Shown here one piece after another: positions 12,283 through 17,161 of a DNA stretch of 19,349 nt. The DNA comes from a virus (lineage: Duplodnaviria > Heunggongvirae > Uroviricota > Caudoviricetes). The notes under the pieces were generated by a model. It did not search any database, was not told where the DNA came from, and worked only from the letters and a program-made list of their open reading frames with translations. The stretch's first letter is position 1. Each line of letters starts with the position of its first letter. The stretch lies in IMG/VR virus record IMGVR_UViG_2576861133_000001; one strand, given 5' to 3'. The translations under genes were made by a program, and so were the position numbers.

Positions 12283-14220
12283 TCAGCCGCCGGACGCACT
12301 GCCGTAGTTCACTCCGGTGATCACCGCCACCGCCGCAGTACGGCGACGACGCCAGTTGATCCAGCGCTCCGCACGGATGGCCACGCTGCCTGTCTGGAAC
12401 ATGGAAACCAGCTCCACCGGGGACGGCGTGGTACTGTCGCCGGTCGGCTCAGACTGCATTTCCAGTGATGCCTCGCGGGACATATCCACTGCCACGCCGC
12501 CGTCATCCGCCAGATAAATATCCGGGGCATTCACCAGCACCAGCTGGTCACCCACGTACTGGGAGACAATCACCGGCAGCCCCTGGAAGGAGCCACCCAG
12601 CAGGGTCATGTCCGGGTATTCCTTCTGACCCAGCGCATTTTTACGCATGGACAGTGCCAGGGCATTGGTGCTGGACATCAGCCAGACCGCACCGGTGGGC
12701 TGCAGGTTTGCTGCCACAAACTGTCCAAACGCAGCCTCTGCATCCGCATCCGGGTTACCGGTTGATGCCGTGCCCTTCACATCATGGGTGATGGACGCCG
12801 GGGAGACATCTGCCACTGCGGCTTTTTTCGGGTCCACAAAGTCTGTATCCAGACGCGCCACCACCGCTTCCGCCAGCGCATTACGGACCAGTGCATCAGC
12901 AGCCGGACTGGAAAAACGGATCAATTCTTCCGTCAGTACCGCAATGGCCGACACCTTCGCATGACTGAAGGTGATGGATTCAAAATCAAACTTCGTCAGG
13001 GGTTTTGCCTTACCCTCACCCACCCAGCCGGCAGCACCGCCGGACACCTGGGCGTGCACACGGATATTGAATGGCACCTGACGAAGTGCAGGGATCCCGC
13101 CCTGACCAAATCGCCCGATAATGGTCTGCGGACGCAGGTAATCAATAAAGTCCTGTGCGTATTCCTGATATTCAGACAGGCTGCCTGCCCACTGCGGATC
13201 CGTGGTGGTCCCCGCGCCCACTGCCGATTTCAGGACATGATGCAGACGACTGTCATCCGGATACTGACGACGGGCCACTTCCAGGGCTTCAGATCGGACG
13301 CCTTTAGCCGCAGCCAGCGATTTGGCAAAGCGGGCGAAGCCAATCCCCTTATCCAGTTTCTGCTCCACACGGATCACCGGCGCAGAAGCCACCGCGGCCA
13401 CATTCCCGTTACCGGCCTGTTTCACCGGCTGCGCCGTGGCGGCCTTACCGGCTTCCAGTTCACGCAGGCGCTTCAGGTGCGCATCCACCTGACGGATTTC
13501 CGCTGCGGTGTTGTCGTAATGCTCTTCCTCCTCCACATCCAGCGTGCGCCCTTCCTCTGCGGCTTTGGTCATGACCTCCTCAAGGGAGGCTGCCAGCGCT
13601 GCACGCTTGTTTTCAAAACTTTTAATCTGTTCGCCAATATTCATTATGGTCTTTTCCTTATGAAAAACGGTTGTTGACTGTGCCGCAGCGCCGGCAGAAG
13701 ATGCGATTTTCACCACCGGTTTCCGGTTGCCGGACGCGGCAGAAAACGGGCGGTCGTAAGATTTAATGGTCCGGATGGTGCATTCCGCATTCGCGGGCAC
13801 GGTGACGGCAGACACCTCCATCAGTTCCCAGCGCAGAAAATGCAGTCCGCCTCCGTCCAGAAAGGTGTATTCATGGGGACGGAAGCCCACGGACAGCCCC
13901 CTGACCAGCCCGGTCTTAATGGCCGCCCAGACCTCATCCAGCCGGGCAGCCAGTTGCGACGGCATATCCGGTACGGGCTTCACCAGTGTTGCCGTGATTT
14001 CCAGCCCTTCGCTGACCCGGCGCACCGTACACTGCCCCACCGGGCGGGAATGGTCATGCTGCCAGAGAAACGGGATCGCACTGCCAAACTCCGCGCCCTC
14101 CGGCTCCAGGATGTCACCATCCCGATCCGGAGAAGGCGTTGACGCAATCCCGGTGATCACCCGTTCATCCTCACTGAAGGATTTCACCGTCAGCAGGGAA
14201 CAGGCCCGTTTAAGAGTCAC
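12283..14220 (-). CDS. Fused HK97-family prohead serine protease (S78-like) and major capsid protein
   Basis: 645 aa; N-terminal protease-like motifs (GIASTP...LWQHD...GLSVGF...EVSAVTVPAN), a central coiled-coil delta-like segment, and a C-terminal HK97-fold capsid-like region; GTG start at 14220 preceded by AGGAGG. Confidence 0.8.
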   Translation of the reverse strand: MTLKRACSLLTVKSFSEDERVITGIASTPSPDRDGDILEPEGAEFGSAIPFLWQHDHSRPVGQCTVRRVSEGLEITATLVKPVPDMPSQLAARLDEVWAAIKTGLVRGLSVGFRPHEYTFLDGGGLHFLRWELMEVSAVTVPANAECTIRTIKSYDRPFSAASGNRKPVVKIASSAGAAAQSTTVFHKEKTIMNIGEQIKSFENKRAALAASLEEVMTKAAEEGRTLDVEEEEHYDNTAAEIRQVDAHLKRLRELEAGKAATAQPVKQAGNGNVAAVASAPVIRVEQKLDKGIGFARFAKSLAAAKGVRSEALEVARRQYPDDSRLHHVLKSAVGAGTTTDPQWAGSLSEYQEYAQDFIDYLRPQTIIGRFGQGGIPALRQVPFNIRVHAQVSGGAAGWVGEGKAKPLTKFDFESITFSHAKVSAIAVLTEELIRFSSPAADALVRNALAEAVVARLDTDFVDPKKAAVADVSPASITHDVKGTASTGNPDADAEAAFGQFVAANLQPTGAVWLMSSTNALALSMRKNALGQKEYPDMTLLGGSFQGLPVIVSQYVGDQLVLVNAPDIYLADDGGVAVDMSREASLEMQSEPTGDSTTPSPVELVSMFQTGSVAIRAERWINWRRRRTAAVAVITGVNYGSASGG

Positions 14221-14283: not shown

Positions 14284-15945
14284 TTATATGAAAAAAACCG
14301 CATATTCTTTCTTTTTCGGTTCCGGGTTAAGGGACATCAGGGAGACCGCATTGAACAGCGCCATCAGCGGGTCAATTTTTCCCCGTCCACTGGCCTGTTT
14401 GGTGATAAGAATGGCGTTACCTTTAGGCTCCACCCGGGCATTGCCGACACACCAGGCCATCAGGGGCTGGTCACCATGCACCAGCACCCCTTCAGCCAGT
14501 TTGCGCTCGGTGGTTTTAATGGCCCCGCCCAGTTTCCAGCCCTGGCTTATCCCCACCACAATTCCGTCGGGGATCCCGGCTTCCGCCAGTGAATCCAGAA
14601 TCTGCCCCACCCCTGACGGGTCAATACCGATATGGTCCAGTAACTCAGCCTCATGAATGCGACGCACATATTCCGCCACTTCCGCCGTGTCATCCCCGAC
14701 ACGCCGGACAATGGTCATATCTCCACAGGCAACAAGATCCTGAAACCGGGACGCCTCGCTCTTCCGTCGGACCACCGCGGTTTCATGCGCCCAGGCATGG
14801 CCCCAGCCCAGCCATTCGCGGGTCTCCCGGTCACGCCCAATCACATACATCCCCAGCAGATCATCCAGCCCTCCGCCGTCAATCCCCACCGTCACCACAT
14901 CAGCACGACGCAGGATATCGTCCAGGCTGATACAACGGCCCTGCTCTTCCCAGAAATCAGCCCCCGCCCAGCGGTCAGAGCGCAGGGCAAGACCAATTTC
15001 CACATTGGCGTGTTTTGACATGAACCCCCGGAATGTCTCTTCACCGGCTTCCCGGGCTTTACGGTACTCCCGGTACAGAAAGGCCTCATCCACTGAATAG
15101 CCGAGATTCGGATTGACCATGGCGAGGTTTTCCATCAGCAGGTTAGTCCCGCTTTCCACCATTTCAGGAGGGTGTTCAAATATCACCGGCAGAAAGTGCG
15201 GATCATGAATTTTGCCGTCGCGCACATCCCGGGCGTACTGCAGTTTCTGTCTGAACACCCCGGCGGGCGGTTCATTCGACTGGGTGGTCGTATACACCAC
15301 AAACCCTTCCGGGCGGGAGGCAAGGCCGCCTATGGCTTCACGTAACATGTCCTCCGCCTTGCACTGCTTGCCAAACAGCCACAACTCATCAATCAGCGTA
15401 CCCACGGACTTGATACCGGACACCGTATTCGGATCGGCTGCCACCACCTTCAGGGTGGTGTCCGTCACTCGGTGGGTGATGGTCCGGATATGGGTCTGTA
15501 CCTGGCAGAGGTCATCCAGATCATCGTCACGTCGTACCATATCCCGGGCAGGGTTGAAGGCGTTGGCCGCCACCTCCACAGTCGGGGCCAGAATCGTGTA
15601 ACCCGCCGCCTGCCGCCAGTTCAGTAACAGTGCAGTCATCATGATCCCCGCGGCCAGCGTGGACTTCGAGTTTTTCTTGGGGATAAGGATAAAAACTTCC
15701 TTGATATGGCGTACACCGGTCTGCGCATCGTAGGAGCCAAACAGGGCCGCCACCAGGTCAAACACCCACGGTGCACAGGACTCCCCGAACGTAGGGCTAC
15801 CAGGTGCATCCACAATCCGCAGTTGTTTAAAAATCGCCAGGGCATGTGCGGCCTCGTCCGGATAAATCGGATCCGGAATAATCGACAGCCCCTTTTTCAG
15901 GCGCTCTGCCCAGTCCGGGCAGGCTGTGCTCCATACAGGTATCAT
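14284..15945 (-). CDS. Terminase large subunit
   Basis: 553 aa; Walker-A-like LIPKKNSKST; C-terminal nuclease-like region; ATG overlaps the small-subunit stop as ATGA. Confidence 0.85.
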   Translation of the reverse strand: MIPVWSTACPDWAERLKKGLSIIPDPIYPDEAAHALAIFKQLRIVDAPGSPTFGESCAPWVFDLVAALFGSYDAQTGVRHIKEVFILIPKKNSKSTLAAGIMMTALLLNWRQAAGYTILAPTVEVAANAFNPARDMVRRDDDLDDLCQVQTHIRTITHRVTDTTLKVVAADPNTVSGIKSVGTLIDELWLFGKQCKAEDMLREAIGGLASRPEGFVVYTTTQSNEPPAGVFRQKLQYARDVRDGKIHDPHFLPVIFEHPPEMVESGTNLLMENLAMVNPNLGYSVDEAFLYREYRKAREAGEETFRGFMSKHANVEIGLALRSDRWAGADFWEEQGRCISLDDILRRADVVTVGIDGGGLDDLLGMYVIGRDRETREWLGWGHAWAHETAVVRRKSEASRFQDLVACGDMTIVRRVGDDTAEVAEYVRRIHEAELLDHIGIDPSGVGQILDSLAEAGIPDGIVVGISQGWKLGGAIKTTERKLAEGVLVHGDQPLMAWCVGNARVEPKGNAILITKQASGRGKIDPLMALFNAVSLMSLNPEPKKKEYAVFFI

Positions 15946-16505
15946 CCGTTGCCCTCATTATCGTTATTCACCACCAGTCGGGGGGGCGGTGGCACCGCAA
16001 AACGGTTAGCCGCTTTTTTCGCGGCATCACCTTTTGCCGATTTTTTCCCGGTATCCCCTTTTTTATGGTGCGTGAACTGCGCCAGACGCCAGGCCGCATC
16101 CAGTGCCAGTTTCGGATCAATGCAGAGGTTTTCCACCAGGATCCGCCCCATGGCTTTCACCGGATCGGGAAGACCATCCTCCATATATTCAATACCAGGA
16201 GACATCACCGCGGACGGTGGCATCTCCAGATTGTTTTCGTCCGGCTGTGGTATTGCAGCCGCCTCACGGCGACGGGGTTTATCCTCCTGCTCTGATTTTT
16301 TCTGCCGGTAAACAGGAACCTCATCCACCTCCACCGTCTCGCATTGTTTACGGGCTATAAACGCAAGCACCTCAGGATCTTTTGCCAGCTGCGAGCCTTT
16401 AACCCTGGCGGTCTTCGCCGAATAACCGGCGGCAATGGCTGACGCTGTTTTGTTTTTCCCGGACATGAGCGCCAGCGCAAATTTTCGTTTTTGCGTTGTC
16501 AGCAC
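15942..16505 (-). CDS. Terminase small subunit (Terminase_2-type HTH N-terminus)
   Basis: 187 aa; GTG start at 16505 preceded by GGAGGAGG; N-terminus LTTQKRKFALALMSGKNKTASAIAAGYSAKTA resembles small-terminase DNA-binding domains. Confidence 0.75.
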   Translation of the reverse strand: MLTTQKRKFALALMSGKNKTASAIAAGYSAKTARVKGSQLAKDPEVLAFIARKQCETVEVDEVPVYRQKKSEQEDKPRRREAAAIPQPDENNLEMPPSAVMSPGIEYMEDGLPDPVKAMGRILVENLCIDPKLALDAAWRLAQFTHHKKGDTGKKSAKGDAAKKAANRFAVPPPPRLVVNNDNEGNG

Positions 16506-16579
16506 AGCCTCCTCCCGGGTCCAGAACGCACTCAGCCGGGTATGGTTCAGCCCATTTTTCCCGGCGTCTCATGCCGCAA

Positions 16580-16702
16580 ATGTTAACTGCTGCCTGGTTA
16601 ACATTTGCTGAAAAAGCCTGTTAACATTTTTTCCGCACAACAAACTGAATAATAAAGATAAAAACCGCAAAAATGCCCGGGCAGCCAGTTAACATGTTAA
16701 CT
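16580..16702. promoter_or_regulatory. Array of five GTTAAC(AT) palindromic motifs; candidate cos / terminase small-subunit binding region
   Basis: GTTAAC at 16582-16587, 16597-16602, 16620-16625, 16688-16693 and 16696-16701, four of them with the extended 8-mer GTTAACAT/ATGTTAAC, inside the 290-bp gap between the HNH and terminase small-subunit genes. Confidence 0.55.
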
Positions 16703-16795
16703 GCCCTGAAACGGGAATTTTTTCTCTGCGTGAGAGGGGGCGCGGTGTCCAAAGCGATCGTTTTTTACGCCGGATGATACCCCCCCCGGGTTGGG

Positions 16796-17161
16796 TTACA
16801 GTCCGATGATGTCGTCCTCTCTGCCACTACCTCCGGACACCTCCGGCAGCGTCGGGTCCGGCATACCACTCGCCGCTTCACGAGCAGACTTTTGTCGATG
16901 GCATTCGGCACAGAGCGTCCAAAGATTCGTCTCCTCATTACCACCACCGAACTGAAGTGCAATTCGGTGATCGAGTTCACTGTCACAGAGGTCAACCACA
17001 CGACCACAGATACAGCACTGCCCGGCGTCCCTCAGCCAGATATGACGCTTGAGGGAAACACGTGCACTGCCACTGACACGACGCTGCTCCCCCTTCAGAA
17101 TATTCACCCGTCGGGTATTCAGTGTTTTGATTCTGCTCTGGAGTGTACGAAGCTCAGCCAT
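16796..17161 (-). CDS. HNH endonuclease (terminase-associated)
   Basis: 121 aa; zinc-finger-like CCICG...C...DH...N...N...CAECH HNH motif; location immediately upstream of the cos-like region and terminase genes, as in HK97-type packaging modules. Confidence 0.85.
   Translation of the reverse strand: MAELRTLQSRIKTLNTRRVNILKGEQRRVSGSARVSLKRHIWLRDAGQCCICGRVVDLCDSELDHRIALQFGGGNEETNLWTLCAECHRQKSAREAASGMPDPTLPEVSGGSGREDDIIGL

Follow-up and report, generated by a model that had tools for sequence, protein, structure and literature searches.

The cos region of phage HK97 is located in a module with the gene order HNH endonuclease (gp74), cos, small terminase subunit TerS (gp1) and large terminase subunit TerL (gp2). 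A 10-nt C-rich 3′ overhang has been reported for it, the stimulation of cos cleavage by the HNH protein is established, and the binding site of TerS is one 15-bp stretch, located at +15 to +29 beside an A-tract (PMC11331095). Furthermore, a G8 tract lies about 43–44 bp from the right genome end and an A/T tract just inside the left end.

In phage lambda and phage 21, the R-sites of cosB and the recognition helix of TerS jointly set the packaging specificity, and both “simple” and “complex” forms of cosB exist (PMC4669245). The lambda cosB (R3-I1-R2-R1) consists of multiple short repeats of mixed orientation, which lie between the cut and terS. Its TerS, gpNu1, is a winged-helix protein, and the genome ends have a 12-nt 5′ overhang.

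The phages SPP1 and SF6 package their DNA by the headful mechanism starting from pac and have neither fixed cohesive ends nor an HNH partner. Around the cleavage site, where the DNA is bent, their small subunit G1P recognises a number of short boxes that occur repeatedly.

The locus analyzed here is the 290-bp gap between an HNH endonuclease gene and terS in a 19,349-bp stretch of DNA, which is referred to as the window. It is probably a cos region with a multi-site TerS array in the position of the lambda cosB, and the packaging module to which it belongs would be that of a Stx-type (Pankowvirus-like) lambdoid prophage, organized as in HK97. The gene order is that of HK97, a G8 tract at a similar distance from the cut and an A/T tract inside the left end recur, and the 10-nt 3′ overhang has its counterpart in one predicted for the window from the phage Lys8385Vzw. 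Counted from the left genome end, HK97 has one TerS site and terS at +50, whereas the window has five octamers at +34 to +155 and terS at +230. Like those of cosB, the repeats are multiple, short and of mixed orientation, and they lie between the cut and terS. As described for lambda, 21 and N15, repeats and TerS recognition helix co-vary in the family of the window, the cut site is constant, and simple and complex forms coexist (PMC4669245). In contrast to the lambda cosB, the window lacks an IHF consensus, has phased T-tracts and contains one site that is a perfect palindrome. Its TerS is an SF6-like Terminase_2 protein instead of a winged-helix one, and the overhang reported for a near-identical phage is a 10-nt 3′ instead of a 12-nt 5′ overhang. 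With G1P of SPP1/SF6, the TerS of the window shares the DNA-binding fold and the family (PF03592; TM 0.84 to 4zc3), whereas the box sequences are unrelated.

Organization of the packaging module

On the minus strand, Pfam assigns the order HNH, 290-bp gap, terS, terL and protease-capsid fusion. The HNH endonuclease gene (16796–17161) is located directly upstream of cos and matches PF01844 (E = 2.7e-7); it is labelled HNH endonuclease in the records of BP-4795 and phage 2851 and in E. coli RefSeq records. The terS gene (15942–16505) codes for 187 amino acids, matches PF03592 (Terminase_2, E = 1.3e-8) and starts with GTG, whereas relatives have ATG at the same codon. The terL gene (14284–15945), coding for the large terminase of 553 amino acids, matches PF03354 (ATPase domain) and PF20441 (nuclease domain). 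Thus, the HNH-gap-terminase arrangement pointed out in a preliminary description, made from the letters and open reading frames, is borne out by domains in this order. HK97 gp2 presumably belongs to the same two families, PF03354 and PF20441. When compared by family assignment, the small subunits differ, as HK97 gp1 had no Pfam match. The protease-capsid fusion is encoded by a single ORF of 645 amino acids (12283–14220, minus strand) in which a prohead serine protease domain (PF04586) and a major capsid domain (PF05065) are joined.

A Shine-Dalgarno sequence of terS, GGGAGGAGG, was read from the minus strand at 16511–16519, with GGAGG 5–6 nt before the GTG. The operon HNH-terS-terL is unidirectional, and the gap is transcribed as part of it; no intrinsic terminator was found within the HNH-terS gap. 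A scan of the whole window against Rfam at gathering thresholds gave no match, and no feature is annotated in the gap across the complete E. coli genomes that carry it. An ORF for a hydrophobic peptide of 24 amino acids, starting from an ATG at 16701 (MLTGCPGIFAVFIFIIQFVVRKKC), was rejected, since its frame ends after 5 codons in the related locus L004 and PGAP annotates none.

Predicted position of the cohesive ends

The Stx1 phage Lys8385Vzw was induced by Zhang et al. [quoted passage not shown] Its GenBank record MT225100 ends with GGACACCGCCCCCCCT and starts with CTCACGCAGAGAAAAAATTCCCGTTTCAGGGCAGTTAACATGTTAAC (also written CTCACGCAGAGAAAAAATTCCCGTTTCAGGGCAGTTAACATGTTAACTGG), and the minus strand of the window reads GGACACCGCGCCCCCT followed across the junction by CTCACGCAGAGAAAAAATTCCCGTTTCAGGGCAGTTAACATGTTAACTGG. 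From the alignment of the record ends to the window, a 10-nt cohesive-end sequence (cosN core), CGCGCCCCCT, is predicted at 16735–16744 on the minus strand, and position 16734, reading along this strand, would then be the left genome end (+1). The cos region of Lys8385Vzw is about 97% identical here and has five copies of ATGTTAAC at the same positions; the cohesive 10-mers, CGCCCCCCCT vs. CGCGCCCCCT, differ by one base. The passages searched in the paper on Lys8385Vzw report the ends alone and do not mention the repeats.

The published ends, together with those of MT225100, thus place a cos site in the interval for which the preliminary description had proposed one. This description had regarded the GTTAAC array as the candidate cos or recognition site. 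The array does lie in the cos region, and it may well serve recognition, but the cut itself falls into one of the accompanying G/C tracts. Both tracts are located as first described (gagaggggg at 16732–16740 and C8GGG at 16780–16790). As the cohesive 10-mer is located inside the gagaggggg tract, the GTTAAC repeats are not the cut site. They span +34 to +155, between the cut and terS, so that 33 bp separate the left genome end from the array.

These termini derive from one PhageTerm analysis, performed for the related phage Lys8385Vzw and not for the prophage of the window; apart from Lys8385Vzw, no phage record with ends in this region was found. By analogy, the published cos-type ends of Lys8385Vzw argue against headful packaging at this locus. 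The record of phi330 (PV189401.1; L001, 1–521) starts inside terS, and its note states both “circularly permutated genome” and “cohesive ends.” Its deposited ends are therefore not physical termini and are unusable for the position of cos. A Serratia phage paper naming HK97 and PhageTerm was discarded, because it deals with unrelated cos types.

Conservation of the cut region

The comparison set comprised 19 enterobacterial loci, the Salmonella phage FSL SP-016 and several E. coli variants. The enterobacterial loci were obtained by scanning genome contigs with a TerS alignment as query, whereas a scan with the single TerS sequence gave no relatives.

The left-end core from +1 to +31, CTCACGCAGAGAAAAAATTCCCGTTTCAGGG (16704–16734, minus strand), includes an A6 tract at +12 to +17 (16718–16723) and is almost invariant from Escherichia to Serratia, Erwinia, and Morganella. 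On the other side of the cut, a G8 tract (16780–16790, minus strand; C8GGG on the plus strand) about 45 bp upstream is present family-wide. Every complex-type locus has a tract of seven or eight G at −50 to −52, and such a tract appears in nearly all of the 19 enterobacterial loci. The core GGACACCGCGCCCCCT, joined at the cut to CTCACGCA, was found in 27 of 28 tabulated loci from about 12 genera, and the remaining one, L027, is a contig which starts downstream of it. The arrangement shared by all loci that cover the region is the G7–8 tract, followed after an interval by GGACACCGCGCCCCCT and, beyond the cut, CTCACGCACAGAAAAAAT. As judged from these alignments, the cut core is conserved with about 30 bp on each side across the Enterobacterales. 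In a global alignment, the end junction of HK97 reached z = 2.4 against the window and z of about 5.5 against the Serratia and Rouxiella members. Given the G8 tract of HK97 and the alignment of its end junction with these members, the cos of the locus may be regarded as HK97-type in its DNA sequence and not in its gene order alone.

A CGATCG sequence, which includes the Dam site GATC, was observed about 20 bp upstream of the predicted cut (16757–16762); it occurs in many relatives but not in all (CGACCG in Atlantibacter). In addition, most relatives have an extra GTAAACAT on the right-end side, about 27 bp upstream of the cohesive 10-mer, where the window has only the degenerate GTAAAAAAC (16764–16772). 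Provided that GTAAACAT has a function, the simple type described below would have recognition sites on both sides of the cut.

The high conservation of the left-end core raises the question of where TerS binds. TerS might read the A-tract region from +12 to +30, which would leave the ATGTTAAC array to a different step of packaging, like a cosQ-like function in termination or processivity, or to a host factor. This is suggested by HK97, whose TerS binds at +15 to +29 beside an A-tract (PMC11331095), and by the stretch from +1 to +31, which includes the A6 tract and varies least of all parts of the gap when genera are compared. The TerS of the window, a Terminase_2 protein with an SF6-like helix-turn-helix, nevertheless belongs to a different family from HK97 gp1, which gave no Pfam match, and the variable motif tracks variable TerS residues. 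The stretch from +1 to +31 is invariant across TerS classes, which makes the conserved TerL and HNH proteins its more likely readers. A binding of TerS to the A-tract region is therefore unlikely, and the docking of TerS on the repeats is preferred.

Structure of the repeat array

The hexamer GTTAAC starts at 16582, 16597, 16620, 16688, and 16696 in the gap. In the whole window it occurs 8 times, with 2.5 copies expected, and none of 200 shuffles reached at least 8. The octamer ATGTTWAC has 5 matches in the 19,349 bp (0.63 expected; at least 5 in none of 200 shuffles), and all of them are located within 122 bp, at 16580–16701. The cluster of five GTTAAC copies had been noticed before with four of them assigned to the octamer; in fact, all five are part of ATGTTAAC or its complement GTTAACAT.

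Site 1, detected by an inverted-repeat search, is a perfect 18-bp palindrome, CAGTTAACATGTTAACTG, at 16686–16703 (+32 to +49), formed by two head-to-head half-sites, of which the octamer pair covers +34 to +47. Site 2 is a direct copy at 16620–16629 (GTTAACATTT, reading AAATGTTAAC on the minus strand) with its octamer at +108 to +115; it is found at +106 to +108 in all complex-type loci. Sites 3 and 4 form a 12-nt inverted repeat, GCAAATGTTAAC-N9-GTTAACATTTGC, at 16576–16608, with octamers at +131 and +148. Its centre, GGCAGC, is conserved, and the lineage with the second motif class (class II, see below) keeps the repeat with both arms changed.

Site 1 and the downstream sites are separated by an AT-rich spacer (16630–16685, minus strand) with phased T-tracts at +62 and +71, as well as at +79 in relatives. 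The positions of the T-tracts are kept in five divergent loci despite differing spacer sequence; the spacer is a candidate for intrinsic bending of the DNA at this place. A search for the IHF consensus WATCAANNNNTTR, allowing one mismatch, gave no match in 16506–16795.

In relatives, ATGTTTAC or ATGTTTAT is located at the same positions, so that the palindromy of GTTAAC is incidental and the true unit is asymmetric. This real unit is the motif AAATGTTWAC of about 8–10 nt.

The inverted repeat, and perhaps the palindrome, could also act as RNA, as a hairpin in the terS leader that tunes translation, mRNA processing or stability. The gap is transcribed within an operon of one direction and has no terminator. 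RNAalifold predicts a hairpin of 10–11 bp for each of the five divergent loci, two of which differ at both positions of one pair, and the leader of the window folds better than its shuffles (z = −2.5). Such a hairpin nevertheless accounts for only two of the five copies. It leaves unexplained why the same lineage has an A to T exchange at the unpaired copy at +108 as well as in both palindrome halves, and why the motif keeps its distance of +33/+34 from the cut. Furthermore, the palindrome is loopless and cannot fold alone, Rfam gave no match, and the Shine-Dalgarno sequence, about 75 nt downstream of the hairpin, stays unsequestered. A function as RNA structure is distinctly unlikely, and the repeats are considered in the following as candidate TerS sites on the DNA.

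Distribution and types of the array

The gap is 95–100% identical in 93 records of Stx or lambdoid phages, including BP-4795, 2851, YYZ-2008, 1717 and many Stx1a/Stx2 prophages of the genus Pankowvirus. Among 5,426 complete E. coli genomes, 1,277 contain it, and single genomes of EHEC strains have as many as 7 copies. In total, E. coli has roughly 3,000 copies, and 422 relatives were obtained from IMG/VR. Arrays of class II, in which the octamer reads ATGTTTAY (e.g., L029, 730–900), are rare and occur in 11 of the 5,426 genomes, compared to about 1,240 for the GTTAAC class. Measured from the predicted cut, the first hexamer of 26 among the 27 loci with the cos core starts at +33/+34; the exception, L025, has it at +36.

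Two types can be distinguished by the length of the gap. In 17 “simple” loci from many genera, the sequence GTAAAC-ATG-TTAAC forms the start of terS, with GGAGG 8 nt upstream and a gap of about 105 bp. The first codons, ATG TTA ACA for Met-Leu-Thr, are here part of GTAAACATGTTAAC (L003, 2495–2508; L007–L022 and L024 just before position 1201). The rare leucine codon TTA and the preceding GTAAAC are invariant in this type, while the downstream codons vary. This suggests that a constraint at the DNA level overlaps the terS start codon in the simple type. The “complex” type of Escherichia, to which the window belongs, has about 190 extra bp between the Site 1 element and the start of terS (GTG or ATG, followed by CTG ACA), and this extra DNA bears three further motif copies. 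Site 1 is homologous to the terS start region (GTAAAC ATG TTA AC) of the simple relatives. From the sequences, unequal crossing-over between ATGTTAAC and ATGCTGAC could interconvert the two types in either direction, and a similar route of conversion has been proposed for N15 and Monarch, two lambda-like phages (PMC4669245).

In addition, E. coli loci with another TerS type (P0063, 47% identity; L031 and L032, around 833–860) have the same cos core and, in place of ATGTTAAC, two direct repeats of AAGTTACAC at +33 and +45. For both loci, gene calling gave no upstream HNH gene.

Constraint on the array

The preliminary description had named the comparison of the motif with related prophages as a check, and this comparison speaks for the array, as the repeats keep their distances from the cut while the spacers diverge. 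When 46 near-identical but distinct sequences are compared, all 38 motif columns are constant, whereas 16 of the 191 other columns between the cut and terS vary. In the four divergent complex-type loci L004, L028, L029, and L030, the spacers have about 60–70% identity, and the sites stay at +34/+40, +107±1, +131±1, and +148±1 with T-tracts at +62, +71, and +79. In L004, L029, L030 and the partial contig L027, every covered copy reads ATGTTTAY/RTAAACAT instead of ATGTTAAC/GTTAACAT, and this lineage keeps both the palindromy (as ATAAACATGTTTAT) and the inverted repeat. L028 shows an exact 10-bp tandem duplication of TGTTAACCGG (around 330–360), corresponding to one helical turn; it has a sixth GTTAAC, and its last site is shifted from +148 to +158.

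These data also bear on the possibility that repeated duplication or unequal crossing-over at the 5′ end of terS (ATG TTA ACx, Met-Leu-Thr) left behind copies without a function, which would persist simply owing to the youth and near-identity of the prophages. In the 17 simple relatives, the start of terS is ATGTTAAC itself, the third copy with its flank (ATGTTAACCAGGCAGCAG) resembles the 5′ end of the simple type (ATGTTAACAGCGCAGAAG), and most database copies are at least 95% identical. The motifs and their positions persist, though, where the spacers have diverged to 60–70% identity, and zero motif columns vary among the 46 distinct sequences. Moreover, all copies share a lineage-specific base, whereas neutral relics would decay independently. 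A relic origin without function is very unlikely, which leaves a role in TerS recognition as the preferred explanation.

Co-variation of the motif with TerS

The motif class was compared with the residues of TerS. The ATGTTTAY loci L004, L027, L029, and L030 have E25, S32, and C35, whereas the GTTAAC loci (the window, L028, Lys8385Vzw and 79 IMG/VR loci) have A25, T32, and V35. Positions 25, 32, and 35 are the only ones among the first 70 which separate the classes. The overall relationship does not follow this division: L004 is the closest locus (HNH 97% and TerL 98% identical to the window), yet it has the other motif, and L028 is the most distant one (HNH 68%, TerL 86%, C-terminal part of TerS 60%), yet it has the motif of the window. 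HNH and TerL were therefore rejected as readers of the motif, as their identities to the window are unrelated to the motif class. A Pantoea locus, whose TerS has T32 and V35, shows GTTAAC, GTTAAC, and GTAAAC at the corresponding positions.

An AlphaFold model of TerS residues 1–56 (pLDDT above 92) shows helices at 4–14, 19–25, 33–41, and 44–56. The best Foldseek match of this N-terminal domain is the DNA-binding domain of SF6 G1P (4zc3; TM 0.84, rmsd 1.6 Å), and profile matches in the PDB are 4zc3, 2cmp, and 3zqp. In the model, residues 25, 32, and 35 are located at the end of helix 2 and in the N-terminal part of the recognition helix (helix 3). From the conserved positions of the array and its co-variation with the TerS helix-turn-helix, the GTTAAC repeats most likely are docking sites of the small terminase subunit.

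The correlation between motif class and TerS is based on about two lineages, and it may partly reflect linkage, because the array adjoins the 5′ end of terS and mosaic recombination could co-inherit both. In the simple type the element overlaps the start codon of terS, so that part of its conservation could be due to coding or translation. Most relatives have the element at +34 to +47 alone, and copies 2–4 are therefore accessory at best.

The same co-variation bears on the operator sites for a regulator that the preliminary description had offered as alternative. In that case, the repeats would bind not TerS but a transcription factor of the phage or the host, such as a regulator of late genes or an anti-packaging regulator. 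Short palindromic and inverted repeats are typical of operators, and a weak sigma-70-like match on the plus strand overlaps two of the copies. Promoter-like matches, however, number 2 compared to 1.4 expected in shuffles, and the match is made of the motif itself. A promoter in the gap was accordingly rejected, as its single hit is built from the motif and does not exceed the shuffle level. Furthermore, there is no regulator gene nearby, the fixed distance to the mapped cos cut suits packaging, and the motif variant tracks the three helix-turn-helix residues of TerS and no other neighbour protein tested, i.e., neither HNH nor TerL. The operator reading thus found no support and is highly improbable, and TerS stays the most likely partner of the repeats.

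Proposed mechanism and packaging specificity

Based on these comparisons, the following course of packaging can be proposed. From about −55 to +31, the conserved core would be the substrate of the conserved nuclease pair TerL and HNH, and the terminase, probably aided by the adjacent HNH protein, would introduce staggered nicks that leave the 10-nt 3′ overhang (CGCGCCCCCT, 16735–16744). The variable octamers from +34 on would act as docking sites for the helix-turn-helix domains of an oligomeric TerS, forming a cosB-like specificity element, and TerS bound there would keep the distance of TerL and HNH to the cut constant. The spacer with its phased T-tracts may permit the DNA to bend or wrap, so that several sites reach one TerS assembly. 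The dyad of the palindrome (about +41) and that of the inverted repeat (about +143) are about ten helical turns apart, and both might contact one TerS oligomer. We infer in this way that TerS binds the repeats, that the DNA is bent or wrapped and that HNH takes part in cleavage in this phage.

More tentatively, and with somewhat less than even confidence, the array and the TerS residues 25, 32, and 35 may form an exchangeable cassette for packaging specificity on an invariant HK97-type cut. E. coli would then have at least two classes (GTTAAC with A/T/V and GTTTAY with E/S/C), and maybe more (GTTACAC). The class would decide on the cross-packaging of the many co-resident prophages of EHEC genomes, including defective ones, and of satellites, and the complex and simple forms would be linked by unequal crossing-over.

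The cut site has already been published for Lys8385Vzw, and the array and its co-variation with TerS are the new detail of what is otherwise a fairly ordinary, expected feature of a packaging module. In the literature searched, neither the repeat array nor its co-variation with TerS was found, and full-text matches to the motif string were unrelated papers. The cos region is present in about a quarter of the complete E. coli genomes, in EHEC with up to seven copies per genome. If the repeats set the specificity, they would decide which Stx and non-Stx prophages in one cell share a terminase, including the defective PPompW prophages, and such shared packaging, if true, would matter for how Shiga-toxin and effector genes are mobilised. 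The two natural classes, which differ in one base pair of the site and three residues of TerS, also offer a system for how an SF6-type TerS reads DNA in a cos phage.

Finally, an IS110-family element, ISEc20, was observed in the PPompW prophages beside the C8/G8 tract (L115, 2775–4233; around 16783 of the window). The HNH and lysis genes are absent there, and tRNA genes and Q follow directly, while the cos core and terS-terL are kept. A defective prophage of the PPompW type might be packageable by the terminase and HNH protein of another prophage.
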